Under the pieces are notes generated by a model that was not told where the DNA came from, made no database searches, and saw only the letters and a list, made by a program, of their open reading frames with translations. Positions 27,866 to 64,000 of a DNA stretch of 64,000 nucleotides are shown in pieces. Position 1 is the first letter of the stretch, and every line of letters begins with the position of its first letter. This DNA is from an uncultured Bacilli bacterium. Its GTDB lineage: Bacteria; Bacillota_I; Bacilli_A; RF39; UBA660. Position numbers and translations under genes: made by a program. The stretch covers positions 4,682-68,681 of the forward strand of contig CAKOJR010000001.1 in the NCBI GenBank assembly GCA_934090735.1, in the 5' to 3' direction.

Positions 27866-28078
27866 ATGGAAAAAGTACCAAGTATGGTAAGTAGTAAAGA
27901 TTTAGATTATTTAGCAGATATTTTTAATTGGAATTATGGAGCTTATAAATCTGCGATGAATATGGAGAGTGAACTTACTGATAAGTCACTTAGTAAATGT
28001 TCAAGAAAAGTATCCGATTTATTTATGAATAATATAGATACTGTTTTAGATATTTTAGGTGGTGAAGATAATGAGTAA
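27866..28078 (+). CDS. Small hypothetical protein
   Basis: GGGAG SD, 70 aa, translationally coupled to next ORF. Confidence 0.4.
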   Translation: MEKVPSMVSSKDLDYLADIFNWNYGAYKSAMNMESELTDKSLSKCSRKVSDLFMNNIDTVLDILGGEDNE

Positions 28079-28391
28079 AGTTGTTAAAAATAGTAAAACC
28101 GAAGTTCCTTGCGGAATGTGTATGAATGATAAAGATTATATGAATAGTATTCTTTCTAGTTTGAAAGAGATGAGTAAAAATTATGTTGTTGCTTTAACTG
28201 AAGCTAGTAATGAAGTTTTATTTAAGAAGTTAAAGAAAGATTTTGATAAAATAATAGATGCTCAAAGAGCGGTATATGAAGTTATGTTTGAAAATGGCTG
28301 GTATGTGTTAGAGGAAGCTGATAAAAGTAAAATTAATGAAAAGTATAATATGCTTTGTACAGAGTTATCAGAATTGGGAGAAGAAGAGTAA
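28071..28391 (+). CDS. CotF-domain-like (spore coat protein F family) small protein
   Basis: ALTEASNEVLFKKL...QRAVYEVMFENGWY resembles the Coat F helical repeat; 106 aa. Confidence 0.4.
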   Translation: MSKVVKNSKTEVPCGMCMNDKDYMNSILSSLKEMSKNYVVALTEASNEVLFKKLKKDFDKIIDAQRAVYEVMFENGWYVLEEADKSKINEKYNMLCTELSELGEEE

Positions 28392-33382: not shown

Positions 33383-34009
33383 ATGAAAGAGATAACTATT
33401 GAGAAGTTTAAGGAAGAGGGCAATATAGAAATTGTTAAATTTCTTATGAAAATAAATAATGGGTATGTTACTTCAAAAGATTTAGATAATTATGGTGTAC
33501 ATAGAATGTATCTTAATATAATGCTTAAAAAAGGATTTATTGAAAAAGTAGCTCCTGGCGTATATATGGATAGTAGTAAAATTGAAGATAAATATTATAT
33601 ATTTAGTTTAAGTATGCCAAATACAATATATTCTCATATGACAGCACTTTATTTTCATGGACTATCTATTAAAGCACCAGATAATAGGTATGATATAACG
33701 GTAAGGAAAACTTATAATAGTATACATCTTAAAGAGCATAATGTATTTTATGTTTGTGATGATATATATGAATTAGGTCTTACGGAGATAGAAACTCCAA
33801 TGGGAAATAAGGTTAGAGTTTATGATATGGAAAGATGTATATGTGATATTATTCGTTCTAAAAACAGAATAGATTTTGAACATGTTAAGTATAGTATAAG
33901 ACAGTATCTTAAAAGGAAGGATAAGGATCTTGTCAAACTTTCTAAATATGCTGATATAATGGGAATTAAAAATCAAGTAATGAATTTCTTGGAGATATTT
34001 TATGAATAG
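33383..34009 (+). CDS. AbiEi-like antitoxin/transcriptional regulator (type IV toxin-antitoxin / abortive infection)
   Basis: N-terminal AbiEi-like domain, positioned immediately upstream of and overlapping an AbiEii-type gene. Confidence 0.6.
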   Translation: MKEITIEKFKEEGNIEIVKFLMKINNGYVTSKDLDNYGVHRMYLNIMLKKGFIEKVAPGVYMDSSKIEDKYYIFSLSMPNTIYSHMTALYFHGLSIKAPDNRYDITVRKTYNSIHLKEHNVFYVCDDIYELGLTEIETPMGNKVRVYDMERCICDIIRSKNRIDFEHVKYSIRQYLKRKDKDLVKLSKYADIMGIKNQVMNFLEIFYE

Positions 34010-34838
34010 TATGCAACTTAAGGCTAAAATAAAAAATATATCAAAAGAAAAAAATATTGATTTTAATACGTTACTTAGACTATATATGTATGATAGATAT
34101 TTAGAAAGACTTTCAAAAAGTAAGTATATAGATAATTTTATTTTAAAGGGTGGCTTTTATTTAAGTGTTTTATTTGGTGTAGAAAACAGGGCTACTATGG
34201 ATATTGATACAGCTTTTAGAAATGCAGATTTTAATGAAGAAACATTAGTTCAAATGATAAAAGAGATACTTTCTATAAATGTAAATGATAATGCAAAGTT
34301 AAATTATGTTAGTATAGTACCTATTAGAGATGAAGATGAGTATGGTGGCTTTAGGGTCACAATATTGGTTGAATATGAAAATATTAAGCAATCATTTCAT
34401 ATTGATATTGCAACAGGTGATCCAATAACTCCTAAAGAGATAAGATATAAATATTTACCATTACTTGGTGACGATTATATAAATTTATATGCTTATAATA
34501 TAGAAACTGTCTTAGCTGAAAAAATAGAAACGATTTTAAGCAGGCTTGAACTAAATGGAAGAACAAGAGATTTTTACGATATATTTTTAATTTACTCAAA
34601 AGAATGGAATAATGTTAATATTGAACATTTTAAGAAAGCAGTAAATAAGACATTTGATAAAAGAGGATATAGCGGAAATTTATGTAATTCTTTAAACATT
34701 ATAAAAAATAGTATTGTATTAAAAGAACGATGGAAAAGATATCAAAGTAATTTTTTATATGCTAGAAATATAGAATATGAGGAAATAATGAATTGCTTAG
34801 AAGAAATGTTAAAATACATAAAAAAATATGAGTATTAG
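34002..34838 (+). CDS. AbiEii/AbiGii-family nucleotidyltransferase toxin (DUF1814)
   Basis: LKAKIKNISKEKNIDFNTLLRLYMYDRYLERLSKSKY..FILKGG...MDIDTAF matches the AbiEii N-terminal and NTase pattern. Confidence 0.65.
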   Translation: MNSMQLKAKIKNISKEKNIDFNTLLRLYMYDRYLERLSKSKYIDNFILKGGFYLSVLFGVENRATMDIDTAFRNADFNEETLVQMIKEILSINVNDNAKLNYVSIVPIRDEDEYGGFRVTILVEYENIKQSFHIDIATGDPITPKEIRYKYLPLLGDDYINLYAYNIETVLAEKIETILSRLELNGRTRDFYDIFLIYSKEWNNVNIEHFKKAVNKTFDKRGYSGNLCNSLNIIKNSIVLKERWKRYQSNFLYARNIEYEEIMNCLEEMLKYIKKYEY

Positions 34839-45670: not shown

Positions 45671-46384
45671 ATGAGAGTAGTCGTAGTTGGGTCTGGAAGT
45701 ATGTGGACTCGTTATAATAGTGCTTGTTATATGGTAGATGATAATATAATGGTAGATTTTCCGAATGGGGCTTGTAAATATTTATATAGAAATGGTGTTG
45801 ATATTAAGAAAATTAATCATGTTTTAATCACACACTTTCATGGTGATCATTATTTTGATATACCGTTTTATGTATTAAAAAAGTCAAAAAGTGGTGATAC
45901 AAATTCGGTTATTTATTGTTCTAAAGATGGAAAATCTAAAATTAAAAAAATTGGACATTTAGCTTTTCCGAATTCTTTTGAGGAAGCTGTTAATGATAGT
46001 GAGTTAAAATTTCGCTGTAAAGATAGTTTTGAAATAAATGAATATTTAATTAGTAGAGTTTTAGTTGATCATGGAAGAATGAAACCTGCATATGGATATA
46101 TTTTTAATGATGGAGATAAAATAGTTGGTTTTACAGGAGATACTTCATTATGCGATAATGTTGAGTTAATGGCTAATAAATGTTCTTATTTATTTTGTGA
46201 TTGTATGAGATGTGAAGGAAATAGTAAGCATATGGGAATAGATAATTTGGAATATCTTTCTAAAACTTATATAACCTGTACTTTTGTGGTTAGTCATTTA
46301 GATGATGAAACAAGAGATGCGTTAATTAAACTTAATTTAGAAAATGTTATAGTTCCTGAAGATTATCAAATATTTAATATATAA
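45671..46384 (+). CDS. MBL-fold metallo-hydrolase
   Basis: HVLITHFHGDHY (HxHxDH) motif. Confidence 0.65.
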   Translation: MRVVVVGSGSMWTRYNSACYMVDDNIMVDFPNGACKYLYRNGVDIKKINHVLITHFHGDHYFDIPFYVLKKSKSGDTNSVIYCSKDGKSKIKKIGHLAFPNSFEEAVNDSELKFRCKDSFEINEYLISRVLVDHGRMKPAYGYIFNDGDKIVGFTGDTSLCDNVELMANKCSYLFCDCMRCEGNSKHMGIDNLEYLSKTYITCTFVVSHLDDETRDALIKLNLENVIVPEDYQIFNI

Positions 46385-50078: not shown

Positions 50079-50315
50079 ATGAGTATGGATGAAATATTAT
50101 TAGATGGTGTGATTGAAGTAAATGGTGAGAAGTTACATGTACTTTTTATGTTTGAAAATAATAATAAAAGATATATTGTATATGTTTTAGAAAATGGTGA
50201 TATTAGTGCTTCAATACTTGGTGATGATATAACATTACTTCCTATAACTACTGATGAAGAATGGGATATGGTTGATGCAGAGTTAGAAAAAAGGGATGAC
50301 ATATGGACAAAATAG
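50079..50315 (+). CDS. DUF1292 family protein
   Basis: IEVNGEKLHVLFMFENNNKRYIVYV...EEWDMV typical DUF1292. Confidence 0.6.
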   Translation: MSMDEILLDGVIEVNGEKLHVLFMFENNNKRYIVYVLENGDISASILGDDITLLPITTDEEWDMVDAELEKRDDIWTK

Positions 50316-51640
50316 TTGTTAGCTGTGAAAAAAATAAATTAACGACTAAATATTACAATAGTTTTGATGATAGTTCTTATAGTAATATCTTTTTTGGTGC
50401 AGAAGCTAAGAGATTTTTAGATGAAATCGAGAAGAGAGATGCTACTGGTGCGAGAATCAGTAAAGATGGTAAAGTGCTTAGAGTTGTTTATCCTGATAGA
50501 GTGATTTTCATTAAAGATTATAAGTTAGTGTTTGAAAATATTGATGCAAGAAGAAATATTGATAGATATAATGCTAATAAAGCTAAAAGGTATATGAATG
50601 GTACTAGGAAAGCTAAGAGAGTATCTAAGACTGGAGCTATTACTAAAGGATTATTAGTTCTTCTTATTATGGTTTCTGTATTAAGTATTAGTCATAAGAT
50701 AAAGAGTTTTGATGATCCGTTTACTCCTAATGCTAGCGCTACTTGGATGGATGATACTAATCAGGAAAGTATTGAAAAATATTTAAATGGTGAGCAGCCG
50801 ATTACGGATGATGATAAAGTAGTTTTAAATACGATAAGTAATACTACTGAGGGAAATGATCCAGGATATGATAAACTTTTATTAGATACACAGATTATAA
50901 GTTTATCTGACGTTGAAGAGGCAGAAAAGACGGAACCAACAAATGGAGAACTTCTTGCTCAAATGGTTGAGGAGAAAGATACTATTTATCATAATTTTAA
51001 TATTGATTTTAGTGATAGAACTAGTGATGAAAAAGCAGCCATAGCTAGAGAAAATTATTATAATTTGATTAGTAGATATGCGAAAACTTATGGGTTAGAT
51101 GCTAATTTAGTAATGGCAATTGCAACGCAAGAAAGAGCAGAACATAGTACGGAGATTGACCCTGGTGGTGGTATTGGTTTAATGCAAATACAGTATAGTG
51201 TTTGGGTTAATCAAGATGTTACAGCGTATAATTTTGAAACAGGTAACTGGGAGACATTTCATATAACTGATAGTAATATTAGAGAGCTTGATACCAATAT
51301 AAAGATTGGGTGTATGTATTTTCAAAATTGTTTAGTTAATATGGATTATAATGTACCAGCTGCATTATGTGCTTATAACTGGGGAACTACTAGTGCTAGA
51401 AATAAGATAAGTCAGTTTTCACAGGATAGAGGGCTTACTGTTAATGAAGTTTTAGAAGCAAATGATACTTCTTGGGTTAATTTGTTTGATGTTGATGGTG
51501 ATACTTCACTAGCTTATCCTAAAGTTGTTCTTTCTTATTATGATAGCAGTAAACCAATTATTAATGATAAAATAGATGAGAATGGTAATGATATTGTGGT
51601 AAGTACTACAGTAAGTAGTCCATTGATTAAAAATAAGTAG
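50303..51640 (+). CDS. Membrane-anchored lytic transglycosylase (SLT domain)
   Basis: TM anchor, then IATQERAEHS...GGGIGLMQIQ (catalytic Glu-Ser plus GLMQ SLT motif). Overlaps the DUF1292 gene by 13 nt. Confidence 0.7.
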   Translation: MDKIVVSCEKNKLTTKYYNSFDDSSYSNIFFGAEAKRFLDEIEKRDATGARISKDGKVLRVVYPDRVIFIKDYKLVFENIDARRNIDRYNANKAKRYMNGTRKAKRVSKTGAITKGLLVLLIMVSVLSISHKIKSFDDPFTPNASATWMDDTNQESIEKYLNGEQPITDDDKVVLNTISNTTEGNDPGYDKLLLDTQIISLSDVEEAEKTEPTNGELLAQMVEEKDTIYHNFNIDFSDRTSDEKAAIARENYYNLISRYAKTYGLDANLVMAIATQERAEHSTEIDPGGGIGLMQIQYSVWVNQDVTAYNFETGNWETFHITDSNIRELDTNIKIGCMYFQNCLVNMDYNVPAALCAYNWGTTSARNKISQFSQDRGLTVNEVLEANDTSWVNLFDVDGDTSLAYPKVVLSYYDSSKPIINDKIDENGNDIVVSTTVSSPLIKNK

Positions 51641-51648
51641 GTGATTAC

Positions 51649-53538
51649 ATGAAAGATAAAAAGAAAGTAAAAATTTATTATGGGTTACTAATAACTTTAA
51701 TTATTTTTGCAGGTGTAAGTTACGCTTGGTTTAGACTTACTAAAACTCAGGAAAATAAGAATGTTATTGGAACAAGGTCTTGCTTAGATGCAACGCTTAC
51801 TGAGGAAACTTCAAACATAGTTTTGGATGATGCTTTTCCAATAAGTGATGAAGATGGTATGAAGCAAACTCCTTTTACTTTTACTTTAAAAAATAATTGT
51901 GAAGGATATGTTAAAGTTTATATTACTATTGATAGTAAGTATAGAGAAAGTGCTAGTACTGATTATTTAAAAGATGATTATGTAAAAGCTAATTTGTCTA
52001 CCAAGGGAACTACTACGGGACAATCTACTTTATTAGCTAATAATCAGTTAATAGATTTAGAAAATAATAATAAAGGATATATTCTTGTATCAACTGGATT
52101 AAAAGCTAATGAAGAAAAGAGTTATGACTTAAGAGTATGGGTAGATAGTGAAACTACACTAGAGCAAGGATTAAATAAAAGCTGGGAAGGAAAGATAGTT
52201 GTTGTAGGCGAGGCTTCTGAAGTAGAAACTTTAAATGGTGCTATACTTGCTAGAAATGATGTGAAAGAGCCACTTACTGTGCCAGCTCAGGAAACAAGTG
52301 GCTATACTAAAGATGATATAACGAAAACCTTAACTATGAATATATCTCAAACATATCAAGGATATTATTTTACATATGGTACTGGATATGAAGCTAATGA
52401 AACTAATTTTAATTTAACTGGTGCTTCAGTAACAACTGAAACCTATGCTAATTCATATTCGAATTTAGTTGGCAAATATCTGCCTGCTGTATATGCTAAT
52501 TTTGTTAATTATAGTAATTTTTCATCAGCCACAGCGGGAACGATGAAAACAACTACTAATTTAGGAAGTGTGTATTATATTGTTAGTGCCAGCTTAAATA
52601 GTTTGACTTATAAAGAGATTTTATCAAATAAAAATCAAACAGAAGCACTTTTAGCTAGTACAGAAGATGATTATGGAATAAGTTATTATTTTAGAGGAGC
52701 TGTAAGAAATAATTATGTACAGTTTGCAAATAAATGCTGGAGGATAGTAAGAATCACTGGTGATGGAAGCGTAAAATTAATATTACATAATGATAATATT
52801 AATAATTCATCTACTCCGTGTTCATCAACGAATAATAGTGATACAGCAGCATTTGCTAGGTATTCTGATGATTTATATACTAACTCATTTAATCCGAGTT
52901 CTAATGATAATGCTTATATGGGATTTATGTATGGAACAACGGGTACAAGTAATTACGCGAGTACTCATGCCAATATTAATAAAAGCACAACTCTTGTAAA
53001 TTTAGAAGCTTGGTATGAGAAAAATAACTTAGATATGTATGTAGATAAACTAGCAGATACAATATGGTGTAATGATAAGAGTGTAGTTGATGGCGGATTA
53101 GGATATGGTTCTCAAGGTACAAATTATGGTGCACATAATAGAGTTACTAGTAGTGGAACTCCTTCATTAATATGTCCGAATGATAAAAATAATGGAAAGT
53201 TGTCTAAGTTTACTGTTAATGACGAAATTAATGGAAATGGTGCATTAACATATAAAATCGGATTATTAACTGCTGATGAAGCTGCATTTGCTGGTTTATC
53301 TGTTAATCTTCCAAATTATTCTATGTATTTATCTGAGAATGCTGAAGATATAGATTGGTGGACGTTATCTCCTAATAGTTCACAAAATAATTTATTTTTT
53401 TGGGTAGTAGAATCTAGTGCTTTACAGAGTGATCTTATCAAGAAAAATTTAGGTTTAAGACCTGCAATTGCTTTAAAATCTAATGTTGAAATTTCTGGTG
53501 GAAAAGGTACTAGTGAAGATCCTTATGTTGTTAATTGA
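51649..53538 (+). CDS. Surface protein paralog C: TasA/camelysin-like N-terminal region with SipW-cognate-type signal, conserved core, C-terminal RPAIALKS..GTSEDPYVVN module
   Basis: SYAWFRLTKTQENKNVIGT resembles the SipW-cognate signal motif; PFTFTLKNNCEGYVKVYITID TasA-like; shares the core and C-module with 757.. and 17181... Confidence 0.7.
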   Translation: MKDKKKVKIYYGLLITLIIFAGVSYAWFRLTKTQENKNVIGTRSCLDATLTEETSNIVLDDAFPISDEDGMKQTPFTFTLKNNCEGYVKVYITIDSKYRESASTDYLKDDYVKANLSTKGTTTGQSTLLANNQLIDLENNNKGYILVSTGLKANEEKSYDLRVWVDSETTLEQGLNKSWEGKIVVVGEASEVETLNGAILARNDVKEPLTVPAQETSGYTKDDITKTLTMNISQTYQGYYFTYGTGYEANETNFNLTGASVTTETYANSYSNLVGKYLPAVYANFVNYSNFSSATAGTMKTTTNLGSVYYIVSASLNSLTYKEILSNKNQTEALLASTEDDYGISYYFRGAVRNNYVQFANKCWRIVRITGDGSVKLILHNDNINNSSTPCSSTNNSDTAAFARYSDDLYTNSFNPSSNDNAYMGFMYGTTGTSNYASTHANINKSTTLVNLEAWYEKNNLDMYVDKLADTIWCNDKSVVDGGLGYGSQGTNYGAHNRVTSSGTPSLICPNDKNNGKLSKFTVNDEINGNGALTYKIGLLTADEAAFAGLSVNLPNYSMYLSENAEDIDWWTLSPNSSQNNLFFWVVESSALQSDLIKKNLGLRPAIALKSNVEISGGKGTSEDPYVVN

Positions 53539-53619
53539 TAGGTTTAGGCCTATCTTTTAGTTTGGGCTTTTTTTTCTTTCTAGATAATGTTATAATTTAA
53601 AGAGAATAGGGCTGGTGTT

Positions 53620-54522
53620 ATGAAGAATAAGAGTGGGTTTATTGCTACTAGTTTAATATATACTTTTTTTCTTGCTTTTATTGCTATATTAACTGCTCTT
53701 TTAAGTAATTATATTGCTAATAAGACGATACTTGATAGGTATAATAGTGATATTCAAAATAAACTTAATAATGGTAATGGTAGTGTTAGTTTATATGTAT
53801 CTTATGCTAGTATAGATGATGGTAAGACGATTACTAATTTAGTTCGTAATGGTAATTTTAGTGATGGTTTAAATGAGTGGAATATTCATGGTGGCGGTAA
53901 TTTTTTAGCTGCTAATTTTATTAAGCCTTGTATAATTAAGAATGGTTATAGTGGTTATTTATCTCAACCGATTAATGTTGTTCCTGATCATAAATATTAT
54001 TTAAGAATGGAGTATCATCAAGTTGGTAATAATAATGGGGATGTGTTTGTTTCAAGTGCTGTAGATAATAGTGATGTAGGTATAAATAAGGTTATTAGTA
54101 GTTCTATTAGTGGTGATGGTTGGAAAAGTATTTCAGAGATAGTAGAGTTAACTGGTAGTGAATTACTTAGAAGTATGATTGTTGGTAAACAAAGTTATGG
54201 TAGTTCTAGTACTTATTATACTAATTTACTTTTAATGGATATTACATATGCTTTTAATGATAGTGTTAGTAAAGATTGGCTTGATAATAATATAGGTTAT
54301 TTTGATGGAACGGTTTCTTTTTTAAAAAAGGATTTTGCAGATGATGACGAAATTACTTTTACATTAGTTCCTTACTCTGGTTATAAAATTAATACTATTA
54401 ATTGTGATTATGATAATTATGAAAGAACACCTACTACGGATGAAGTTGATACTAAATATTTATTTAAGTTTAAAAATAATAGTCATGATAATAGGTGTAA
54501 TATTACTTTTAAGCATGAATAG
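53620..54522 (+). CDS. Pseudopilin-like membrane-anchored protein with CBM4/9-like beta-sandwich domain
   Basis: N-terminus KSGFIATSLIY (pilin-like hydrophobic segment but no Glu+5). NGNFSDGLNEWNIHGGGN...DHKYYLRMEY...GWKSISEIVEL matches the CBM_4_9 pattern. Confidence 0.5.
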   Translation: MKNKSGFIATSLIYTFFLAFIAILTALLSNYIANKTILDRYNSDIQNKLNNGNGSVSLYVSYASIDDGKTITNLVRNGNFSDGLNEWNIHGGGNFLAANFIKPCIIKNGYSGYLSQPINVVPDHKYYLRMEYHQVGNNNGDVFVSSAVDNSDVGINKVISSSISGDGWKSISEIVELTGSELLRSMIVGKQSYGSSSTYYTNLLLMDITYAFNDSVSKDWLDNNIGYFDGTVSFLKKDFADDDEITFTLVPYSGYKINTINCDYDNYERTPTTDEVDTKYLFKFKNNSHDNRCNITFKHE

Positions 54523-54531
54523 GAGGACAGT

Positions 54532-55041
54532 ATGAAAAATCGAGGTTTTGTTTTAGTTGAAACAATTGTGGTTATTCTTGTACTTTGCGTTCTTTTGATT
54601 ATGCTTTATGGTGGGTATATGAATGTTATTAGTGCAGTTCAAAGAAAGAGTTATTATGATAATACAGAGTATATTTATAAGACTAATTTAATTAAGGAAT
54701 ATATTGAAAATAGTGGTTTTAATGGTTATGAAGGCGCTGATATGTATATTTATTGTCAGGGAAGCGCTGATTGCATATCTAGAGGAAACGATTATTTTGA
54801 AGAGTTAACTAAAAATATGCATGTTATTTCTATTTATATTATGAAGTGGTTTACTACAGATATAGCTGAGGATGAATTATCTAGTTTAGAAGCTACGACC
54901 CAAAATTATATTAGAAAATTAGATCCAACTAAGCCGACTAATGAAAATGTTTATAGAGTTATTGTTATGTTTGAAGATGAAAATAATTTAGGAAGTACGC
55001 CAACTATATATCAGTATGCTTCTTTAAAGTTAGGGGATTAA
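54532..55041 (+). CDS. Type IV pilin-like protein (class III signal peptide)
   Basis: MKNRG|FVLVETIVVILVL: prepilin cleavage motif with Glu+5. Confidence 0.7.
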   Translation: MKNRGFVLVETIVVILVLCVLLIMLYGGYMNVISAVQRKSYYDNTEYIYKTNLIKEYIENSGFNGYEGADMYIYCQGSADCISRGNDYFEELTKNMHVISIYIMKWFTTDIAEDELSSLEATTQNYIRKLDPTKPTNENVYRVIVMFEDENNLGSTPTIYQYASLKLGD

Positions 55042-55043
55042 TT

Positions 55044-55580
55044 ATGAATAAGAAGGGAATGACACTTGTTGAGATAATTGTATCGATTGTTCTGGTATCT
55101 ATTATTCTTGTTTTTATAACTAGGCTATTGATTACAGTTAATGGGTTATATAAAAGAAGTAAGTTAGAAGTTGATTTTGAAATATTAGATACTCTTTTAA
55201 TAGATGCGATAGAGTCTGATGTGAATAGGTATGGTGTTAAGGAAGTGAGCTCTGATAGTAAAAGTATAACATTTACTTTTAATGCTTATAGAGAGAGCAA
55301 ACTTGATGAGTATATTGTTAAAAAGTTATCATTAACAGATGATGGTAGTTATATAAAGTATGAACAAGTAAGTACAAGTACTCCTTTAACTAGTGATGAA
55401 AGAGCTAATAATTTTGTACGTAAGATTCCAGATGGAGCTATTTTGGATACTACCAATTGTTTTATTAATAATGAACTTTATAGTGATTCAACTTCTAAAT
55501 TATATGAAATAAAGTTTAAAATTATGTCTTCAAATGGAAATGATTTTACTGCTAATATATTTTTTAAAACTCTAGGATAG
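55044..55580 (+). CDS. Type IV (pseudo)pilin-like protein
   Basis: MNKKG|MTLVEIIVSIVLV prepilin motif. Confidence 0.7.
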   Translation: MNKKGMTLVEIIVSIVLVSIILVFITRLLITVNGLYKRSKLEVDFEILDTLLIDAIESDVNRYGVKEVSSDSKSITFTFNAYRESKLDEYIVKKLSLTDDGSYIKYEQVSTSTPLTSDERANNFVRKIPDGAILDTTNCFINNELYSDSTSKLYEIKFKIMSSNGNDFTANIFFKTLG

Positions 55581-55590
55581 AGGTGATTTT

Positions 55591-58500
55591 ATGAAAAGTA
55601 ATAAGGGTTTTACAATGGTAGAACTTCTTGCTGTTATTACAATTTTATCTGTTATTATGATTATTTTAATACCGGCTGTTGATAATATATCTAAAAGTAC
55701 TAAGGAGAGTATATTAAGTTCAAAAATTAATACTATAGAAACAAGTGCTTCAAAGTTTGGTGAGGATAATATTAATAATTATCAAAAGTGTACTAATGCT
55801 TTAGAGGGCGGGGCAATTGGTGGATATGTTTATACAGGTTGTTTGATTAGTGTTACTGATTTGGTTAGATTAGGTTATTTGGAGTTTGATACAACTAAAA
55901 ATGGTGCTAACTTTATTAGTAATCCAGTTACTGGTGGAAGTATAGATGGTAATATATTACTTTGTTATGATCCTCATACAATAACAGTTAATGCAACTTT
56001 TTATAATAATGGTGATGTAAATTATTCGTGTCCAGCAGTTAGTGATAGTGGTAATTATTCACTTAATTTAGGAGCTACCAGAAAAGATTTTTATTGGGGT
56101 ACTCATGAAGTATTTAAAACTAAAATATATACTAAAGGTGATTTTAAGAATATAACTTGTAGTGTTGATGGACCATTTAGCTGCTCTATTTCTGGTGATG
56201 ATTTAACCATTACTTTAAATGATAGTGGTACTGGAGCTAATGGTAGTTATCAAGTACAAGTAACGGCTACTTATAATGAAAATAGTGAAGATAAGAATCT
56301 TTATAGAAGAATGAATTTAGGTGTGTATGTTGTTAATTTTGATATAGATGATTATACACCGGGAATGTGTATGAAGACTTTTAGTAATGAGGTATTTAGA
56401 ATTACTGGTGAAAATTATGGTAAGTTTTCTTTGGAAGATGTTAGCGATGGATTAAATGCTACTATTAAAGATGATGTTCTTTATATGAATAGTGGTTCTG
56501 TTACTGGCGAGCAAAGTTTCCTTATTAAAGAAGATCATGCTGGTTTAACTAAACAAATTTTAAGAGAAGTTTATAATTTAAGTGTAGAAACGCAAATTAC
56601 GAATGTTATTGTTGGAGAAGCTGCTACTAAGGTAGAACTTAAGGCAGATGGTGCTGGTGATTTAAAGATTACGACTGATAGTGCAGCTGCTAGTTTATCT
56701 TCAAATAATAGTTCTTTTTCAAGTACAATAACTTTAAGAGGTCAAAATTATTTCTATATAAGAGGAAATAGTATTGGAACGGTTAATATTACGATAAAAG
56801 GCTCTTTATGTGGTGAAACTAGTTTTAGTGTAAATGTATCTAATATAAAACTTGATAACCAGGATATTCCTAAGTATTTATATTTTAACGGAGGCACAAG
56901 ACGAAATAATGATAAGACTCAGTTTAAGTCTAAAATAGTTGGTAGTACAGTTAATGATTTTTCATGTACTGTTTATAAGAAGAATGGTAGTAATTATGTT
57001 CAAAATGATGAATATTTAACGTGCTATATCGAAAATGATACTCTTACTATAGAAACAACTTCTGGTAATAATATTTTTAGTAATGTTACGGATTTAAAGG
57101 TTAATGTAAAGAGTGAAACAAATGGTTCTTTAGATATTTATATACCAATTATATATAGAACTAGTATATCTTTTAAAAAGAATGGTAGTAAAGTATCTAG
57201 AGTTTGTAAAGAACTTAATTCAAGTGCTGGGCTAAGTGATGAAACTATTTTGATTTATGGAAATAATTTAGGAGTTCTTAGTAGTGATGGCACTAGTTGT
57301 AATAGTAATACTACTAATATTGTTTTCGATAGTATGATAGATTATTATTTAGTAGATGTAGGTGATCCAATAAATCCAACTATTTCAATTACGAATAATT
57401 GTGCTAGCGTTTCCGATAGCTATGGAAAGATGGTTTTATCAAGACATAATGTTACTAGTTCTCAGTATAATAGTACACTTCCATATAAGCTTGGAAGAAC
57501 TAATACTGGTAGAGAGATTGTCTATATCAGAGAAAATAATGGTAATAGATTAGGTGCTCTTTATTATCACATTTATTCTTTAAATAGTAGCTCTAATTCT
57601 GTTACTTTAGGTGTTGGAAAGCAAAGTGCACAGATAAGAATTAGTTATGCTGCAACTGGTAGTGTTAGTTATAGGATTGCAAATAAAGATGTTGCCAGGG
57701 TTAATGTTATAAGTAGTGATACATTTTCTTATGATGATAATATTAATAAGACTTTTACTGATATAATTACAATAACAGCACTTAGAACGGGCACAACATA
57801 TTTAACTATAAGTGGAAAAGAATGTGGGACGTTTACAATTCCAATTTATGTTACAAATGTTTTTGCAATAAATTTAGATGGTGGCATATATGGAACTGTT
57901 AGTCAGTCATCTTTAACTTGTACTGAATCTAGACTTAATTCTGGGTGCTCTGTAACTTTACCTGACTTTACTGTACCTAGTGGAATTACGAAAAAAGGTT
58001 GGAGTACTAATCCAAATGGTGGTAATGTCTTAAGTGTTGGTAGTAGTGTTATGATTAATAATAATACTAAAGGAACTACTTATTATGCAATAGCAGATAA
58101 TCCAAGACCTAGTTGTTTATTTACAAATGTTCCTAGTGATATTTATGGTAAAGATAAAGTTTATATAAATTGTACTGATGTTGGTGGAGGCCTTTCTAGT
58201 GATACGATAAGTACTAGTAGTATAAGTGCTAGTAATGAAGTTATAGTAGAAAGTGTTAGTAAGGTTAGTAATATAACTAATGGATATAAGTTTGAAGTTA
58301 CAGTAAATCCAAATAATTATTATGGACCATTTACTCTTACATTAAATGAAGGAGCTGTTAGTGATGTATATGGATTTTCTAATAAAAAGGTTGTAACTAG
58401 TGAGATTATTAGTGCAGAACATGAATATGTAAGTTTTTATGAAATCGGTAAGGACAATAAAGAAGATTTAATTGCTTTCTTATATGATAATAAGGATATT

Positions 58501-59625
58501 GATGGAAGTGATGGTTATACACTTAAGGTATATGGTTCCGGTGACATGGAAGATTTTACTAAAGCACCATGGGATGGTTATGCAGAATCAATTAATAATA
58601 TTGTTTTAAGTAGTGAGTTAACTAGTATTGGTAACAATGCTTTTTATGGAACTAATATAAGTAATATTAATATACCTAATAGTGTTAGTAGTATAGGAGC
58701 ATCGGCATTTGAAAGTACTAGCTTAAAGATACTTAATGTTAATAGTGAAACTATTGGTAAGAGAGCATTTGCTAATAATTTAGAACTTACTAGTTTGACT
58801 ATTGGAGGTAATGTTAGAACTATAGAACAGTATGCTTTTAGTACAAATACTAATTTAAGTGATATAACCTTTAAAGAAGGCGTAGAGTATATTCGTGATT
58901 ATGTATTTATTGATAGTAAACTTGGCAATTTAGTTATGCCAAATAGTTTACAAACTATTGGGGATTATGCTTTTTATAATTTTAAAGGAGAAAGTGTTGA
59001 TATTAGGAATGCTTATGTAGGACTTGCATCATTTAGGGGAACTAATTTTAAAGAGATAAAAGCAAGCACTTTAGAGGTAAAGGATAACATTTTATATAAT
59101 GGAGATATTCTTATACTAGTTCCGGATAAGCTTGAGGGTAATGTTAAAATTATAGAAGGAACAAGTACAATAACTTATGAAGCATTAAAAGGCTTTGTAA
59201 GTGCTGATGAGAAAATGATGAGTTTAACTATTCCTAGTTCAGTTACAGAAATAAATTCAGTAATTAATTTAAATATAAAAGAGTTTATAGTAAGTGATGA
59301 TAATGATAGATATATGAGTGATAATGGAGTTCTTTATGATAAATACAGTGATGCTTTAGTAAGTATACCTAGTTATTATCAGGAGTCTAGTTATACCATA
59401 AATTCAAAAAGAATTAATAGTTATTCAATAATGAATAATATAATTCTTAAGACTATTACTCTTGGTGATACAGTTGAAACTATTGAAAATAATGCTGTTT
59501 ATGGTAGAGGAGATTTAGGAATAAGACAGGTTATTAATTATTCAAATGTTTCATATAGCAATGCTCATTATGATTTAGATTATTCTATATCTTTTATGGA
59601 TAAAGTTAATGATGTTCAAAATTAA
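55591..59625 (+). CDS. Giant pilin-adhesin fusion: prepilin N-terminus, Ig-like repeats, BspA-type leucine-rich repeats (1344 aa)
   Basis: MKSNKG|FTMVELLAVITIL prepilin motif; Big_2-like segments; C-terminal LRR_5/BspA repeats (IPNSVSSIGASAFES..., IGKRAFANNLELTSLTIG..., MPNSLQTIGDYAFYNF). Confidence 0.7.
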   Translation: MKSNKGFTMVELLAVITILSVIMIILIPAVDNISKSTKESILSSKINTIETSASKFGEDNINNYQKCTNALEGGAIGGYVYTGCLISVTDLVRLGYLEFDTTKNGANFISNPVTGGSIDGNILLCYDPHTITVNATFYNNGDVNYSCPAVSDSGNYSLNLGATRKDFYWGTHEVFKTKIYTKGDFKNITCSVDGPFSCSISGDDLTITLNDSGTGANGSYQVQVTATYNENSEDKNLYRRMNLGVYVVNFDIDDYTPGMCMKTFSNEVFRITGENYGKFSLEDVSDGLNATIKDDVLYMNSGSVTGEQSFLIKEDHAGLTKQILREVYNLSVETQITNVIVGEAATKVELKADGAGDLKITTDSAAASLSSNNSSFSSTITLRGQNYFYIRGNSIGTVNITIKGSLCGETSFSVNVSNIKLDNQDIPKYLYFNGGTRRNNDKTQFKSKIVGSTVNDFSCTVYKKNGSNYVQNDEYLTCYIENDTLTIETTSGNNIFSNVTDLKVNVKSETNGSLDIYIPIIYRTSISFKKNGSKVSRVCKELNSSAGLSDETILIYGNNLGVLSSDGTSCNSNTTNIVFDSMIDYYLVDVGDPINPTISITNNCASVSDSYGKMVLSRHNVTSSQYNSTLPYKLGRTNTGREIVYIRENNGNRLGALYYHIYSLNSSSNSVTLGVGKQSAQIRISYAATGSVSYRIANKDVARVNVISSDTFSYDDNINKTFTDIITITALRTGTTYLTISGKECGTFTIPIYVTNVFAINLDGGIYGTVSQSSLTCTESRLNSGCSVTLPDFTVPSGITKKGWSTNPNGGNVLSVGSSVMINNNTKGTTYYAIADNPRPSCLFTNVPSDIYGKDKVYINCTDVGGGLSSDTISTSSISASNEVIVESVSKVSNITNGYKFEVTVNPNNYYGPFTLTLNEGAVSDVYGFSNKKVVTSEIISAEHEYVSFYEIGKDNKEDLIAFLYDNKDIDGSDGYTLKVYGSGDMEDFTKAPWDGYAESINNIVLSSELTSIGNNAFYGTNISNINIPNSVSSIGASAFESTSLKILNVNSETIGKRAFANNLELTSLTIGGNVRTIEQYAFSTNTNLSDITFKEGVEYIRDYVFIDSKLGNLVMPNSLQTIGDYAFYNFKGESVDIRNAYVGLASFRGTNFKEIKASTLEVKDNILYNGDILILVPDKLEGNVKIIEGTSTITYEALKGFVSADEKMMSLTIPSSVTEINSVINLNIKEFIVSDDNDRYMSDNGVLYDKYSDALVSIPSYYQESSYTINSKRINSYSIMNNIILKTITLGDTVETIENNAVYGRGDLGIRQVINYSNVSYSNAHYDLDYSISFMDKVNDVQN

Positions 59626-59716: not shown

Positions 59717-60990
59717 GTGGATTTTATAGAAAGGGAGAAGAAGAAAAGAACTATTTTGTATGGCTTATTATAGATTAACTAAAACACAGACAAATAAGAA
59801 TATTATTGCAACTAGAACTTGTTTAGATACTAGTTTAACTTAAGAAACTAGTGAAATAGTATTAGCTGAAGCTTTTCCAATAAGTGATGAAGATGGACTT
59901 AAACAGACCCATTTACTTTTACTTTAAAGAATAATTGTGATAGTTATGTTAAAGTAAATATAATGTTAGTAAGTGATTATAGAACAAGTGATGATACAGC
60001 TTATTTAAAAGATGATTATGTTAAGACTAATTTTTCTTTTAAGGGAACTACTGATGGAGAAATGGATATTTTAAGCTCATTTCCTTTGGGAGAAGCGGAT
60101 GTTAATACTGAAGGTTATATTCTTAAGAGTATGGGTTTAACGAGTAACGAAGAAAAGAGTTTTGATTTAAGATTGTGGGTTGATTCAGAAACTACTATAG
60201 AGCAAGGTTTAAATAAGATGTGGAGTGCTAAGGTTGTTGTTACAGCAATGGCTGCAGAGGAACCTCCTGCTGCACCTAAGGGGTGGTATGAAGCTAATAT
60301 AGGAACTTTTCTGGCAGCATTAAGGGAAAATGTTTCTTTAAGTAAAGTAGCTACTGTTCCTGGTAGTGAGGTTAGTGGCTATACGCACAACGATGTTGAT
60401 AGTTCGACAGCAAGTGTTAGTACGACGTATCAAAAATATTACTTTACTTATGGAACTGGTTTTGAAGCAAATGGTACTAAGTTTAATTTGACTTATTATG
60501 AAGATATGCTGGCTGATACAATATGGTGTAATGATAAAAGTACTTCTAGTGGATTAGGATATGGAACTAGTACTACTAATTATAGTGTTTATGGAAGATT
60601 AGTTACTTTTAAGAAACCAACATTAATATGTTCTAAAGATAATAGTGGCGAAAGTTATCTAAATTTACTGTAGATGATACAAGTTATGGTAATGGTAATT
60701 TAACTTATAAGGTTGGATTACTAACTGCAGATGAGGTAGTATTTGTTGGTTCTGTGTATGGTGTATATAACCGCTCTACATATTTGTATGAAAATGGTAC
60801 ATCGGTTTGGTGGACAATGTCACCTAAGGGTTATGATGCTAGTTATACAGAAGTTTGACGAGTTAGATCTGGTTATCTAAATGGAGATAGTGTTACGTCA
60901 TCTTATGCACTTCGTCCATCTATTGCTTTAGTTTCTACAGTTACAATTACTGGAGAAGGTACTAGTGAAAACCCTTATATAGTAAAGTAG
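59717..60990 (+). pseudogene. Decayed paralog D of the surface-protein family
   Basis: Homologous to the 51649.. gene. It has lost the about 10-codon TM segment with a frameshift, carries an in-frame TAA in the TasA-like region, a 1-nt deletion, a roughly 200-aa internal deletion removing the conserved core, and a further frameshift plus TGA before the RPSIALVS..GTSENPYIVK tail. Confidence 0.7.
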
Positions 60991-60996
60991 GTGTTT

Positions 60997-61566
60997 ATGA
61001 AGAAAAAATATGTTTATTTAATTGGTGTATTTATTATAGTATGCGTTATTATTCTTATTATTTGTTTTAGTAAGAAGGATAGTATCAGGCTTTATGATAA
61101 GTATAGTGCTAGAATAGGTATTAATTACAATGATAATAGTTATTCTAGAAGTTTTGATTATGATGGAGTAACTGGTAGAATAATATATGAAGATAAGACT
61201 GTCTATATGGATAGCAAAGGAGTATATTACAGTTTAGATAATGATTATTATAAGTATGAAACTGATATTAATTATACTTCACTTAGTGATGTGATTAGTA
61301 AATTTAAAATTTTAGAAAAAAACAATGAAGAGTATAGATGTGAAGTTAGTTCTGAATTTTTAGATAGTTTATTTATTAAAGGGACACCAAGTGATTGTTA
61401 TTTAAGTATAGATGGTGGATATGTAAAGGGGGTGAGTGTTAACTTCGATAAAGGAAATGTGTATATTTCTTTTAAGAAGTTAGGTGATGATTTTAGTGTT
61501 AGCATGCTTGGTTATTTTGATGAAAAATCTAAGATTGTGCATGATAATATATTGGAAATTAAATAG
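60997..61566 (+). CDS. Bitopic membrane protein (possible PilN/PilO-like pilus assembly component)
   Basis: Short cytoplasmic Lys-rich N-terminus, one TM helix, about 160-aa extracytoplasmic domain; located between pilin genes. Function is speculative. Confidence 0.4.
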   Translation: MKKKYVYLIGVFIIVCVIILIICFSKKDSIRLYDKYSARIGINYNDNSYSRSFDYDGVTGRIIYEDKTVYMDSKGVYYSLDNDYYKYETDINYTSLSDVISKFKILEKNNEEYRCEVSSEFLDSLFIKGTPSDCYLSIDGGYVKGVSVNFDKGNVYISFKKLGDDFSVSMLGYFDEKSKIVHDNILEIK

Positions 61567-61574
61567 GAGGATTT

Positions 61575-63338
61575 ATGAAGAATAAGAAAGGATTTACTTT
61601 AGTAGAAATTATTGCTGTTATTGCACTAATTGCAGTTATTGTTGGTATTTTTATTGTTAATTTAGTTGGTAAAAATGATCCTAAAGAAAATAATAAAGAT
61701 ACAGTTAAACAAATCTTAAGTGCTGCAGATGCTTATGTTAGTGCTAATAAGAGTGAAATTGAAAAGTTGTATGAGGGGTATAATTTTGTTGATATAACAA
61801 TTGGCGACTTAAAAAATAATGGTTTACTTAGTGAAGATATTATTAATAAGGAAACTAATGAAAAATATAAAGATGATGTAGTGGTTCGTGTTACTTTAAA
61901 TGATGCAACAAAAGCAACTGAGTTTGAACTTGATCCAGAAGATAAGGATACAGATAATACTTATCTTGTAGCTGATACTATTTATTTGGAGTATGATGCT
62001 AGTGGAACTAATTGGTGTAATGGGGAAAATGAATTTAAGGGATTAAATAATGCTGATTCAAATTATGGTAAGTTAGTTCTTACATCTTTAGATGAACCAA
62101 GTAGAAGTATAGATTTATTTAAAGATGATACTATTAAGGTAAAGTCTTGTAATGTTGATGTTACAAAGGCTGGTACTTATAGTGTAGTGTATACTTATAC
62201 TTATAATGGAGTTAATGTTGATAAAACAAGAACTGTATATGTAGCTGCTAGTGCTACTGATGTAGATAGTTTTACTGCTAATTTGAAATTAAATGGTGTT
62301 GTGACTAATAAAATTAATTTAGGTGCTACAGATGTTAATATTTTTATAACACTTCGTTATAAGAATGGTACTTCAAAAGAAATTGATAAACCAATAAATG
62401 AAATAACTGATTTTACTATTAAAGGATTTTCTACTGAACCTGTTGGAAATAAAACAGCAATAGTTAGTTATAATAAAACTAATAGTGATGGTTCTGTTCC
62501 TAGTCCAGTTAATTTAGATTATATGGTAAGTGATGAGCTTGTTGATTTTATTGGAAGTGATTGTGTTTTAGAGCCTGGTAAGACAGATGAATGTTATTAT
62601 AGAGGCGAAGTTGAAACTAACTATTTAAAATATGAAAATAGTTCATATATGTTTAGAATTTATTATAGAAATGGCAATGGTATTAAAGTTATTGCTAATG
62701 ATCCATATAGTTATACATGGAATGGAAAAACTAGCAGTGATTTAGTATATGGCATGATTGGTGCTTGTAAGTATAGTGGATGTTGTAATGGTGGAAGATA
62801 TTATTATCAAGGATTAGGTGGAACAAATTATGGGTCATCATTTAACTATCCTACAATGAGTAATATTGTTAATCATTTCTATACTTCTATTGTTAATGGT
62901 AGTCCTAAATATGTAGATAATCAATATATTACTGGTGCTGGACTTGGTGGTGGAGCATTCTATACTAAAGTAGCTCTTATGAGTAAAAATGATTATACTA
63001 AAGTAGCTAATTGTAATGGTAATAATTGTTTTAGAAGTTATTTAACTAATAATAGTAATGCTGGTAAAGATTTCTGGTTAGTAGAAACAGTTTCATTTAC
63101 GATGGATACTTCTAACTTTAACTATGGTAGAAGTGAAGCACATGTTTATAACAATTATGTTGATGCTAGTACATTTGTTGTTGACAAAGGTGGTTCTTAT
63201 AAAGGATATACTGATAATGATTATTATACTACTAATGTAACATATGCTACTAATAAGGTAAGACCAACATTACAACTTAAGAATGCTAAAATAGTTAGTG
63301 GAAATGGAACAAAAGCAAATCCATTTATTGTAAGGTAG
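61575..63338 (+). CDS. Large type IV pilin-like protein (587 aa) carrying the C-terminal module shared with the surface paralogs
   Basis: MKNKKG|FTLVEIIAVIALIAV prepilin motif. C-terminus VRPTLQLKNAKIVSGNGTKANPFIVR parallels RPAISL...G.GTSEDPYVV. Confidence 0.65.
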   Translation: MKNKKGFTLVEIIAVIALIAVIVGIFIVNLVGKNDPKENNKDTVKQILSAADAYVSANKSEIEKLYEGYNFVDITIGDLKNNGLLSEDIINKETNEKYKDDVVVRVTLNDATKATEFELDPEDKDTDNTYLVADTIYLEYDASGTNWCNGENEFKGLNNADSNYGKLVLTSLDEPSRSIDLFKDDTIKVKSCNVDVTKAGTYSVVYTYTYNGVNVDKTRTVYVAASATDVDSFTANLKLNGVVTNKINLGATDVNIFITLRYKNGTSKEIDKPINEITDFTIKGFSTEPVGNKTAIVSYNKTNSDGSVPSPVNLDYMVSDELVDFIGSDCVLEPGKTDECYYRGEVETNYLKYENSSYMFRIYYRNGNGIKVIANDPYSYTWNGKTSSDLVYGMIGACKYSGCCNGGRYYYQGLGGTNYGSSFNYPTMSNIVNHFYTSIVNGSPKYVDNQYITGAGLGGGAFYTKVALMSKNDYTKVANCNGNNCFRSYLTNNSNAGKDFWLVETVSFTMDTSNFNYGRSEAHVYNNYVDASTFVVDKGGSYKGYTDNDYYTTNVTYATNKVRPTLQLKNAKIVSGNGTKANPFIVR

Positions 63339-63346
63339 GTGAGATT

Positions 63347-64000
63347 ATGGAGAATAAAAAGAATTATGTTTTAATTGGTGTACTTATTGTTGTTATTGTA
63401 GGTGCATTATTAATCAAGTATTTTAGTGATAGGAAAACTAATAATGTTCTTAACGGTGATACAATTATAGGAAGTAGTTTAAATACTAAAGAACAAGCTA
63501 ATGTAGATTCTTATTTGAAAGATGAGCTTGTTAAAAATAAGTATACACTAGACAGAGCAAAAGTTTATGTAGATCCTTATAAAGTTAGTCCACTTAGTGC
63601 TATTATTATATTTTATACTGATAATAGTATGGAAGTTAGTGTAACAGTTAAGGGTAAGAATAATGATGATTTTACAGTAAATTATGGAAAAAGTAATTAC
63701 CATTATATACCAGTGTATGGATTATATGCTGATTATGATAATAAAGTTGTTGTAACTTTAGGAGATAAAACTACTAAAGAATTTACTATTAAAACTGATA
63801 AGATTAATGTTCCAGCTATAAAAGCTGAAAGCGGAAATGTAACTGCATCTGGGGACTTTTATTTGCTTACTAGCCCAATAGGTATGTGTTCCATTGGAGT
63901 TGATGGATATGGTAATCTTAGATGGATGTTAGGTGATTATTATTATCATAATATTAAAGTATTAGATAATGGTCATTTACTAATAGGTATTGATACTGAT
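63347..64000 (+). CDS. Bitopic membrane protein, 3' truncated by window end
   Basis: MENKKNYVLIGVLIVVIVGALLI TM anchor; ORF open to the end of the window. Confidence 0.45.
   Translation, partial: MENKKNYVLIGVLIVVIVGALLIKYFSDRKTNNVLNGDTIIGSSLNTKEQANVDSYLKDELVKNKYTLDRAKVYVDPYKVSPLSAIIIFYTDNSMEVSVTVKGKNNDDFTVNYGKSNYHYIPVYGLYADYDNKVVVTLGDKTTKEFTIKTDKINVPAIKAESGNVTASGDFYLLTSPIGMCSIGVDGYGNLRWMLGDYYYHNIKVLDNGHLLIGIDTD

Follow-up and report, generated by a model that had tools for sequence, protein, structure and literature searches.

What is the function of a bacterial protein of 1344 residues that begins like a type IV prepilin and ends in a block of leucine-rich repeats? The question is raised by a gene at 55591..59625 of a 64,000-nucleotide stretch of DNA, hereafter the window, from contig CAKOJR010000001.1 of an uncultured Bacilli bacterium (assembly GCA_934090735.1). 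An earlier note, prepared from the DNA sequence alone, had proposed that the product may be a minor pilin that presents an adhesin at the tip of a pilus. The analysis described here points to a giant modular type IV minor pilin whose BspA-type leucine-rich repeat (LRR) adhesin is held out by a long stalk at, or close to, the pilus tip, a reading to which we assign a probability of about 0.68. The target gene, its parts and the neighboring genes of its locus all lie on the forward strand.

The reading frame consists of 1344 codons, starts with ATG and is preceded by a GAGGTGA Shine-Dalgarno sequence 5-6 nt before the start codon. Because the DNA is only 29% GC, a 4-kb open frame at this position is real and not a product of chance. 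Fourteen full-length homologs with amino acid sequence identities of 41-98% were found. The open reading frame (ORF) reported in the earlier note is upheld by its ATG, its ribosome-binding site and a length beyond chance at this GC content, and all three peptides quoted there are found in the translation. The protein is composed of a pilin module, a stalk of approximately eight β-sandwich domains and a BspA-type LRR head. In the following, loci of relatives fetched for comparison carry L labels such as L001 and L084, and homologous proteins or protein clusters carry P labels such as P0003 and P0024.

The N-terminus reads MKSNKG/FTMVELLAVITILSVIMIILIP, where the slash marks the position after Gly 6 at which a prepilin peptidase is predicted to cut. 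The leader peptide, MKSNKG, is encoded by 55591..55608, and the remainder of the pilin module, residues 7-148, by 55609..56034. The elements of a class III signal are all present, namely a short basic leader ending in Gly, a Phe at +1, a Glu at +5, a hydrophobic stretch of about 20 residues and matches to curated models. The Pfam model N_methyl is matched with 26.3 bits (cut-off 21.2), the NCBIfam model TIGR02532 (IV_pilin_GFxxxE) with 22.8 bits (cut-off 16.3). In the numbering of the mature protein the module contains Phe 1, Glu 5, Ser 14 and Pro 22. Gly -1, Phe 1, Glu 5 and Pro 22 are invariant in an alignment with ten full-length homologs (42-98% identity), and the corresponding Phe 7, Glu 11 and Pro 28 of the precursor are invariant in all 20 clusters of the wider family, down to 26% identity. 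Gly 6 (position -1) is invariant among 11 close homologs and is replaced by Ala in a few distant family members. Taken together, the two model scores and the depth of this conservation bear out the proposal that the N-terminus is a prepilin rather than a Sec signal.

Following the signal, the module comprises helix α1 and a small globular head whose four Cys residues, Cys 67, Cys 84, Cys 125 and Cys 147, are invariant in the homolog alignment. Stand-alone pilins of 122-124 residues align to residues 1-147 of the target and end at the equivalent of Cys 147; residues 1-148 thus appear to constitute a complete small pilin. A modular pilin has been defined as a complete pilin module, a linker and then one or more domains not specific to the biology of type IV pili (PMC8179133), and in the target a pilin module equal to a whole stand-alone pilin is indeed followed by Ig-like domains and LRR_5 repeats. 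The AlphaFold2 model of the module has the shape of a "lollipop," in which residues 9-59 form a helix that is accompanied by two short helices and four strands (mean predicted local distance difference test score, pLDDT, of 77); a Foldseek search of the PDB with this model gave no significant match. By sequence, the α1 segment matches the solved pilins Geopilin, PilA, Streptococcus sanguinis PilE1 and MshA with E-values of 5e-4 to 0.02, and the module is 36-48% identical to a 155-residue putative major pilin of L008/L009. Assignment to a competence pilin was considered and rejected, in that the scores for ComGC, ComGD, ComGE and ComGF are all below the NCBIfam equivalog cut-offs (31.1 versus 75, 16.4 versus 70, 29.6 versus 49 and 14.1 versus 80, respectively).

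The stalk extends from residue 149 to residue 945 (56035..58425) and consists of approximately eight tandem β-sandwich (Ig-like) domains with conserved Cys pairs. Residues 149-960 are modeled by AlphaFold2 as an all-β string of such domains with a mean pLDDT of 80.6. A Foldseek search with this model returned titin, contactin, DSCAM, the MG domains of α2-macroglobulin and the S-layer proteins EA1, Sap and SbsC, with E-values of 1e-17 to 1e-10. The seventh domain (residues ~757-838) is Flg_new-like, and the Pfam matches to Ig_7 and Flg_new, at residues 776-836, are only sub-threshold. The Ig-like, β-rich repeats of the earlier note are therefore supported by the model and the Foldseek matches but not by Pfam, as a scan of the protein gave no match to Big_2. 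All 18 Cys residues of the target lie within residues 67-861 and many of them are invariant, as befits an extracellular protein. When the stalk (residues 149-960) served as the profile in an exhaustive search of 1.84 billion representative sequences, the whole stalk was recovered in only two clusters, and approximately 20 further clusters (at 50% identity) of proteins of 1320-1500 residues share its distal part. The same distal domains are carried by many proteins with a TasA/camelysin-like (SipW-type) N-terminus.

The BspA-type LRR head is formed by residues 946-1344 (58426..59622) and includes an N-terminal cap motif (..YTLKVYGSGDMEDFTKAPW..). Pfam LRR_5 (PF13306) matches in three stretches covering approximately residues 1000-1300, with a score of 164.5 bits against a cut-off of 27.7 and an E-value of 1.3e-48, and the C-terminal BspA/LRR_5 block described in the earlier note is thereby confirmed. 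Among proteins of known structure the head matches by sequence 4fs7 (E=6.9e-24), 4h09 (E=4.4e-20), 4gt6 (E=5.2e-16), PcpA (4cp6; E=1.4e-11) and TpLRR (6mlx). The NCBIfam model for the adhesin HupY/LrrG (NF047961) matches approximately 80 LRR residues with 55.9 bits, a score so far under its cut-off of 1250 that this equivalog identity was rejected. By analogy with BspA, PcpA and HupY/LrrG, the LRR head most likely acts as an adhesin.

The full-length homologs derive solely from metagenomes and metagenome-assembled genomes (MAGs), labeled "uncultured Tenericutes/Bacilli," UMGS human-gut MAGs and Hadza samples. Beyond them, approximately 20 distant clusters align over the full length at 26-32% identity with Phe 7, Glu 11, Pro 28 and ten Cys residues kept; LRR_5 is found in 20/20 and N_methyl in 16/20 of these proteins. 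The distribution of homologs thus comprises 14 full-length relatives at 41-98% identity and at least 20 clusters of the same layout. The statement in the earlier note that LRR pilins of this size are rare was overstated, given these clusters and an architecture that has already been catalogued, and is only partly right. An unrelated LRR pilin of 862 residues (P0024), which lacks the Ig stalk, indicates that the fusion of LRRs to pilins arose more than once. The 81 fetched loci contain 119 prepilin-like ORFs, of which 23 have at least 800 residues, with a maximum of 2248, and most of these are devoid of a recognizable module; the way in which the loci were searched for biases this set. Prepilin-like ORFs of 2248, 1653, 1625 and 1451 residues in related gut MAGs, for example, show no Pfam module beyond N_methyl (L075, 9953-16699; L067, 3756-13687; L043, 9995-14350).

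Conservation along the protein is uneven. Between genera, α1N (71-82% identity) and LRR residues 1011-1160 are the most conserved parts; the latter, best conserved after α1N, are 79-86% identical within the genus and 47% identical between genera. The P0003 cluster of orthologs, which is 68% identical to the target and is the most abundant species cluster, contains 1414 variants at 90% identity. In the small sample of 15 variants that was read, none of the 34 columns of α1N and only 4 of the 114 columns of the pilin head vary, and the variation peaks at residues ~850-1000, a region made up of the final stalk domain and the LRR cap. Such a pattern would be expected if the interface used in assembly is under constraint and the distal end is exposed.

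The genetic context provides the second line of evidence. The target is encoded by the last of four tightly packed genes (53620-59625), with junctions of 10, 3 and 11 nt and a strong ribosome-binding site at each. The first gene (53620..54522) specifies a pilin-like protein of 300 residues, MKNKSG/FIATS..., which has a Ser rather than a Glu at +5, a feature invariant across its orthologs, and is a candidate capping ("K-like") subunit. Note that K subunits and PilA from S. sanguinis also lack Glu 5 (PMC9934059). The first ~40 residues of this protein are almost invariant over three lineages, between which the identity of the giant pilins falls to 32%. A profile of its residues 73-153 matches the C-terminal carbohydrate-binding-like domain of the Cry1A protoxin and the RsgI3 sensor (E-values of 3e-4 to 0.09), and this segment may adopt a jelly roll of the carbohydrate-binding type. 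The second gene (54532..55041), with an AGGAGG ribosome-binding site and located 10 nt past the upstream stop codon, encodes a predicted minor pilin of 169 residues (MKNRG/FVLVE; TIGR02532 18.1 bits, cut-off 16.3), the orthologs of which are 58-84% identical and occupy the same position in all loci compared. The third (55044..55580) encodes a further predicted minor pilin of 178 residues (MNKKG/MTLVE; N_methyl 24.4 bits, TIGR02532 22.9 bits), again with orthologs conserved in position. Four minor pilins, one of them without Glu 5, are therefore encoded together, as in HIJK-type sets. The sub-threshold matches of the block proteins to the NCBIfam ComGD, ComGE and ComGF models are confined to the N-terminus. 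A terminator-like hairpin followed by a T-run precedes the block at 53537..53554; this is a consensus match only, and the number of terminator-like matches in the pattern scan equals the chance expectation.

The order of cap, pilin, pilin and giant pilin is kept in the window and in L001/L002, L006, L007, L008, L009 and L084. These represent at least three lineages with coherent divergence: the genus of the target (L001/L002, L006 and L007), a second genus (L008 and L009; 42% identity) and a third lineage (32% identity), represented by L084 with its contig of 1.03 Mb. On two short or end-cut contigs the giant pilin is preceded by two genes of ~180 codons (L087) or by a 186-residue N_methyl pilin and a cut ORF of 70 residues (L085). 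In L008/L009 the block directly follows genes for a T2SSF protein of 552 residues (E=6.5e-51), a prepilin peptidase of 252 residues (A24_N_bact and Peptidase_A24) and the 155-residue N_methyl pilin, which contains Phe 1, Glu 5, Gly 14 and Pro 22; the contig ends before any ATPase gene. The reading of the target as a minor pilin at the tip is strengthened both by the operon with its pilin-like genes and by this contiguity with pilC, pilD and a pilin gene in the sister genus.

On the basis of these observations and of known systems, the following sequence of events may be envisioned. The prepilin would be inserted into the membrane and cut after Gly 6 by a prepilin peptidase, leaving Phe 1, Glu 5 and Pro 22 on the hydrophobic α1N; the motif itself is observed. 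As suggested by the operon and by the literature, the target, the 300-residue "cap" and the two pilins of ~170 residues could then form a four-subunit priming or tip complex similar to HIJK, ComGD-G or PilABC. Within such a complex the target may contact the first major subunits, next to the shaft, a position suggested by the resemblance of its pilin module to the putative major pilin and by the retention of Pro 22. Major pilins would polymerize under the tip complex and push it outwards. The approximately eight Ig-like domains would serve as a spacer, by our estimate a few tens of nanometers long if fully extended, that holds the LRR solenoid of ~400 residues off the filament. The solenoid, judging from other LRR_5 proteins, would bind a ligand on the host mucosa, on food particles or on another microbe. 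Cleavage, complex formation, tip position and LRR-mediated adhesion are thus what we infer for the target.

Several points weigh against this scheme. A Pfam search of 58 ORFs across the window revealed neither a T2SSE ATPase (PilB) nor a T2SSF platform protein (PilC) nor an A24 peptidase (PilD), and none was found within 10 kb downstream of it. A regular-expression scan of the window for the GspE Walker A and A24 motifs also revealed none, an "A24-like" match inside the target gene being due to chance, and a relaxed motif scan yielded only the five prepilin-like ORFs of this locus; a gene for a small major pilin was not among them. In related MAGs, genes for type IV pili are scattered among housekeeping genes, with pilC-pilD alone in L018 and pilB with one pilin gene next to proS in L013; the lack of machinery in the window is consequently not evidence against its presence in the genome. 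That the source genome encodes such machinery is an extrapolation from the sister genus and from these scattered genes. (The apparent full-length relative in L013, at 29% identity, is in fact a pilin of 142 residues and a Sec-type LRR protein of 831 residues with proS between them, and hence no LRR pilin beside PilB.) In addition, profile searches of the PDB with the three upstream proteins revealed no likeness to GspI/J/K, PilV/W/X or ComGD-G beyond the N-terminal helix. The gene order, with the K-like gene first and the large pilin last, differs from the canonical H-I-J-K. Finally, passage of a ~145-kDa subunit through the wall of a monoderm is a difficulty that the pilus reading leaves unexplained.

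Some of these points could also be accommodated by a protein that is never polymerized, in which the class III signal would be either processed or kept as a transmembrane helix, the protein would stay in the cytoplasmic membrane, the stalk would span the wall and the LRR head would be exposed as on a sortase- or lipid-anchored adhesin. Such an arrangement would account for the absence of assembly genes from the 64 kb and the adjoining 10 kb and for the weak structural match to pilins, and a very long stalk is well suited to a wall-spanning anchor. Moreover, since the stalk domains are shared with proteins having TasA-like N-termini, the N-terminus of the target could be one of several devices for anchoring or secretion. 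A simple anchor, however, has no need of an invariant Glu 5 and Pro 22 or of an entire pilin head with its disulfide Cys residues, all kept over deep divergence. Nor does it sit easily with strict co-inheritance with three pilin-like genes, including the one without Glu 5, or with the position of the block in L008/L009, where it adjoins pilC, pilD and a pilin gene. We regard this explanation as unlikely.

Still less probable, in our opinion, is a filament subunit without an adhesive role, belonging to a competence (Com/T4dP) system or to a secretion pseudopilus, whose LRRs would capture DNA or secreted cargo. The best NCBIfam matches of the N-terminus are indeed ComGC and ComGE (31 and 30 bits), and the layout in L009, one major and four minor pilins after the platform gene, is reminiscent of comGB-GC-GD-GE-GF-GG (PMC12153270). 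Those scores, however, are far below the equivalog cut-offs (75 and 49) and reflect a generic α1 helix only, Com minor pilins have ~100-140 residues and no grafted modules, and the LRR_5 relatives of known role are adhesins. The locus furthermore encodes a second large modular pilin and additional surface proteins. It is very improbable that the target is an ordinary Sec-exported BspA-like surface protein with a signal peptide that merely resembles that of a prepilin. Sec signals, too, have a basic n-region and then a hydrophobic stretch, and most of the LRR_5 proteins retrieved (P0015-P0030 and the 831-residue protein of L013) have no N_methyl motif. In the target, by contrast, the motif exceeds two curated thresholds, Phe +1 and the charged Glu within the hydrophobic segment are invariant, the helix of 50 residues runs into a pilin-like head, and pilin genes flank the target on both sides. 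The minor pilin with a tip adhesin therefore remains the preferred reading. As put forward in the earlier note, it gains support from the context, that is, three other pilin-like genes in the operon, one of them without Glu 5, and, in the sister genus, the adjacency of the block to pilC, pilD and a pilin gene; the adhesive role at the tip is the part that is surmised.

The genes surrounding the block also appear to specify surface proteins. Directly upstream of the block is a gene (51649..53538) for a secreted protein of 629 residues, the N-terminus of which is TasA/camelysin-like (SipW-type) whereas the C-terminus matches DUF6273 (25.6 bits). Proteins of this type (N-terminus ..GVSYAWF..) are encoded beside the block in one to three copies in L001, L006, L009 (9719-15201) and L084 (4497-6050), and tblastn located relatives in at least seven further pilin-bearing loci. 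A second copy of the gene, downstream of the target (59720..60990), is a decayed pseudogene, interrupted by in-frame stops and lacking a large internal segment, of which fragments remain at 59963-60673 and 60754-60858. Its counterpart is intact in L001 (628 residues) and is broken in the same manner in L082, from another sample. It is followed by a gene (60991..61566) for a single-pass membrane protein of 191 residues, a putative downstream partner with orthologs in L001, L006, L007 and L009 and with no family match in Pfam or NCBIfam. At the same position, membrane proteins of 227, 238 and 213 residues are encoded in L084, L085 and L087, respectively.

Next to it (61575..63338) lies the gene for the second modular prepilin, of 587 residues (MKNKKG/FTLVE; N_methyl 27.0 bits), with an Ig-like region (weak match to Bact_surface_Ig-like) and a C-terminal domain that ends in a DUF6273-like motif. 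A modular prepilin of this kind, together with its small membrane-protein partner, is kept in all lineages compared. The possibility that it shares a C-terminal domain with the 629-residue DUF6273 proteins was rejected; the BLASTP E-value is 0.009 and hhalign aligns the last 31 residues only, with a probability of 67%, and the similarity was accordingly taken as a motif. An arylsulfotransferase-family gene starts at 63347 and runs off the window at 64000; its counterparts in L001, L082 and the distant L084 match Pfam Arylsulfotran_N/Arylsulfotrans. This gene follows the second modular pilin both in the genus of the target (L001, 19816-21690) and in L084 (16758-18638), suggesting that its linkage to the pilin island is conserved. 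On the other side of the island, upstream of the 629-residue protein, a gene (50303..51640) encodes a membrane-anchored lytic transglycosylase with an SLT domain (Pfam SLT, 41.2 bits) that is syntenic in L001, L006 and L007. It adjoins the island only in the genus of the target, and one may speculate that it helps the pilus or the giant pilin through the peptidoglycan.

Elsewhere in the window are genes for a Fic-domain protein (76-687), an AbiEi/AbiEii toxin-antitoxin pair (33383-34838), a metallo-β-lactamase-fold protein with a precomputed match to Anti-Pycsar Apyc1 (45671-46384) and a Coat F domain protein (28059-28391). The presence of the Coat F gene suggests a spore-former, although relatives are labeled "Tenericutes."

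A broader interpretation of the island can be put forward only tentatively, and we consider it doubtful. The SipW-type DUF6273 protein, the cap without Glu 5 and with its carbohydrate-binding-like domain, the two small pilins, the giant LRR pilin, the small membrane protein, the modular pilin of ~590 residues and the arylsulfotransferase-family protein might together form a dedicated multi-adhesin organelle at the pilus tip. This organelle would be the main device by which a lineage of uncultured human-gut Bacilli with small genomes (one member lies on a contig of ~1 Mb) attaches to host mucus or partner cells, with an LRR head that varies between strains and stalk modules that are also displayed on a second, TasA-like carrier.

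The grafting of modules gives type IV pili new functions, and only PilB and PilC from S. sanguinis have been studied experimentally. The family described here is three times larger than these proteins and is widespread in human-gut metagenomes, with 1414 variants in one species-level cluster. The surface biology of uncultured low-GC gut Bacilli is almost unstudied, and the target would be a concrete candidate for attachment. With it one could also probe the upper size of the cargo that a monoderm exports through type IV pilus machinery, and residues 946-1344 provide a defined LRR domain for ligand screens. Confirmation of the proposed function would be an incremental gain for pilus biology and a useful one for the biology of the gut microbiome.

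How, then, does the protein compare with known systems? It belongs to an already defined class, the modular type IV pilins, and has an architecture that is on record. Its size, its long stalk, the conserved island with several pilin genes and its wide occurrence among uncultured gut Bacilli deserve notice. According to Dataset S1 of Raynaud et al. 2021, the combination of IPR012902 (N_methyl) and IPR026906 (the BspA-type LRR entry) is the seventh commonest modular-pilin architecture, with 18 proteins having one LRR entry and 6 having two, and IPR026906 is listed among the modules with "no clear function" (PMC8179133). These entries, which were only counted and can be compared by architecture, display the same domain combination as the target. 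A literature search revealed no functional study of an LRR/BspA pilin.

The modular pilins PilB (vWA) and PilC (lectin) from S. sanguinis are adhesins presented by pili, and their location at the tip is predicted from modeling (PMC8179133, PMC9934059). As in these proteins, including PilC with its Ig-like and ConA-like lectin domains, the target has a small pilin module with a class III signal and Glu 5 and a linker to modules unrelated to pilins. It likewise shares its operon with a protein without Glu 5 (PilA there, the 300-residue protein here), a monoderm host and a predicted tip location. Unlike PilB and PilC, to which it has no sequence relationship beyond α1, it carries LRR_5 in place of a vWA or lectin module, is about three times larger (1344 residues, versus proteins of ~50 kDa) and includes a spacer of eight Ig-like domains. 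There are four rather than three minor pilins, the machinery is not adjacent in this stretch of DNA, and the function of the target is a predicted one.

With the BspA-type adhesins, namely Tannerella BspA, Streptococcus pneumoniae PcpA, group B Streptococcus HupY/LrrG, Treponema TpLRR and the gut proteins 4fs7, 4h09 and 4gt6, the target has in common the LRR_5 repeat type, the cap motif and an extracellular location. In place of the choline-binding, LPXTG, lipid or type IX secretion system signals that anchor those proteins, the target has a pilin module. The large type IVb minor pilins CofB from enterotoxigenic Escherichia coli and TcpB from Vibrio cholerae are also counted among the closest known systems. 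Finally, the four pilin-like genes, one without Glu 5, and the large adhesive "effector" recall the GspH-I-J-K, FimU-PilVWX and ComGD-GE-GF-GG tip complexes with PilY1/PilC. The locus differs from these in having no detectable homology to the I, J and K subunits and another gene order, and its effector is itself a pilin rather than a docked β-propeller.

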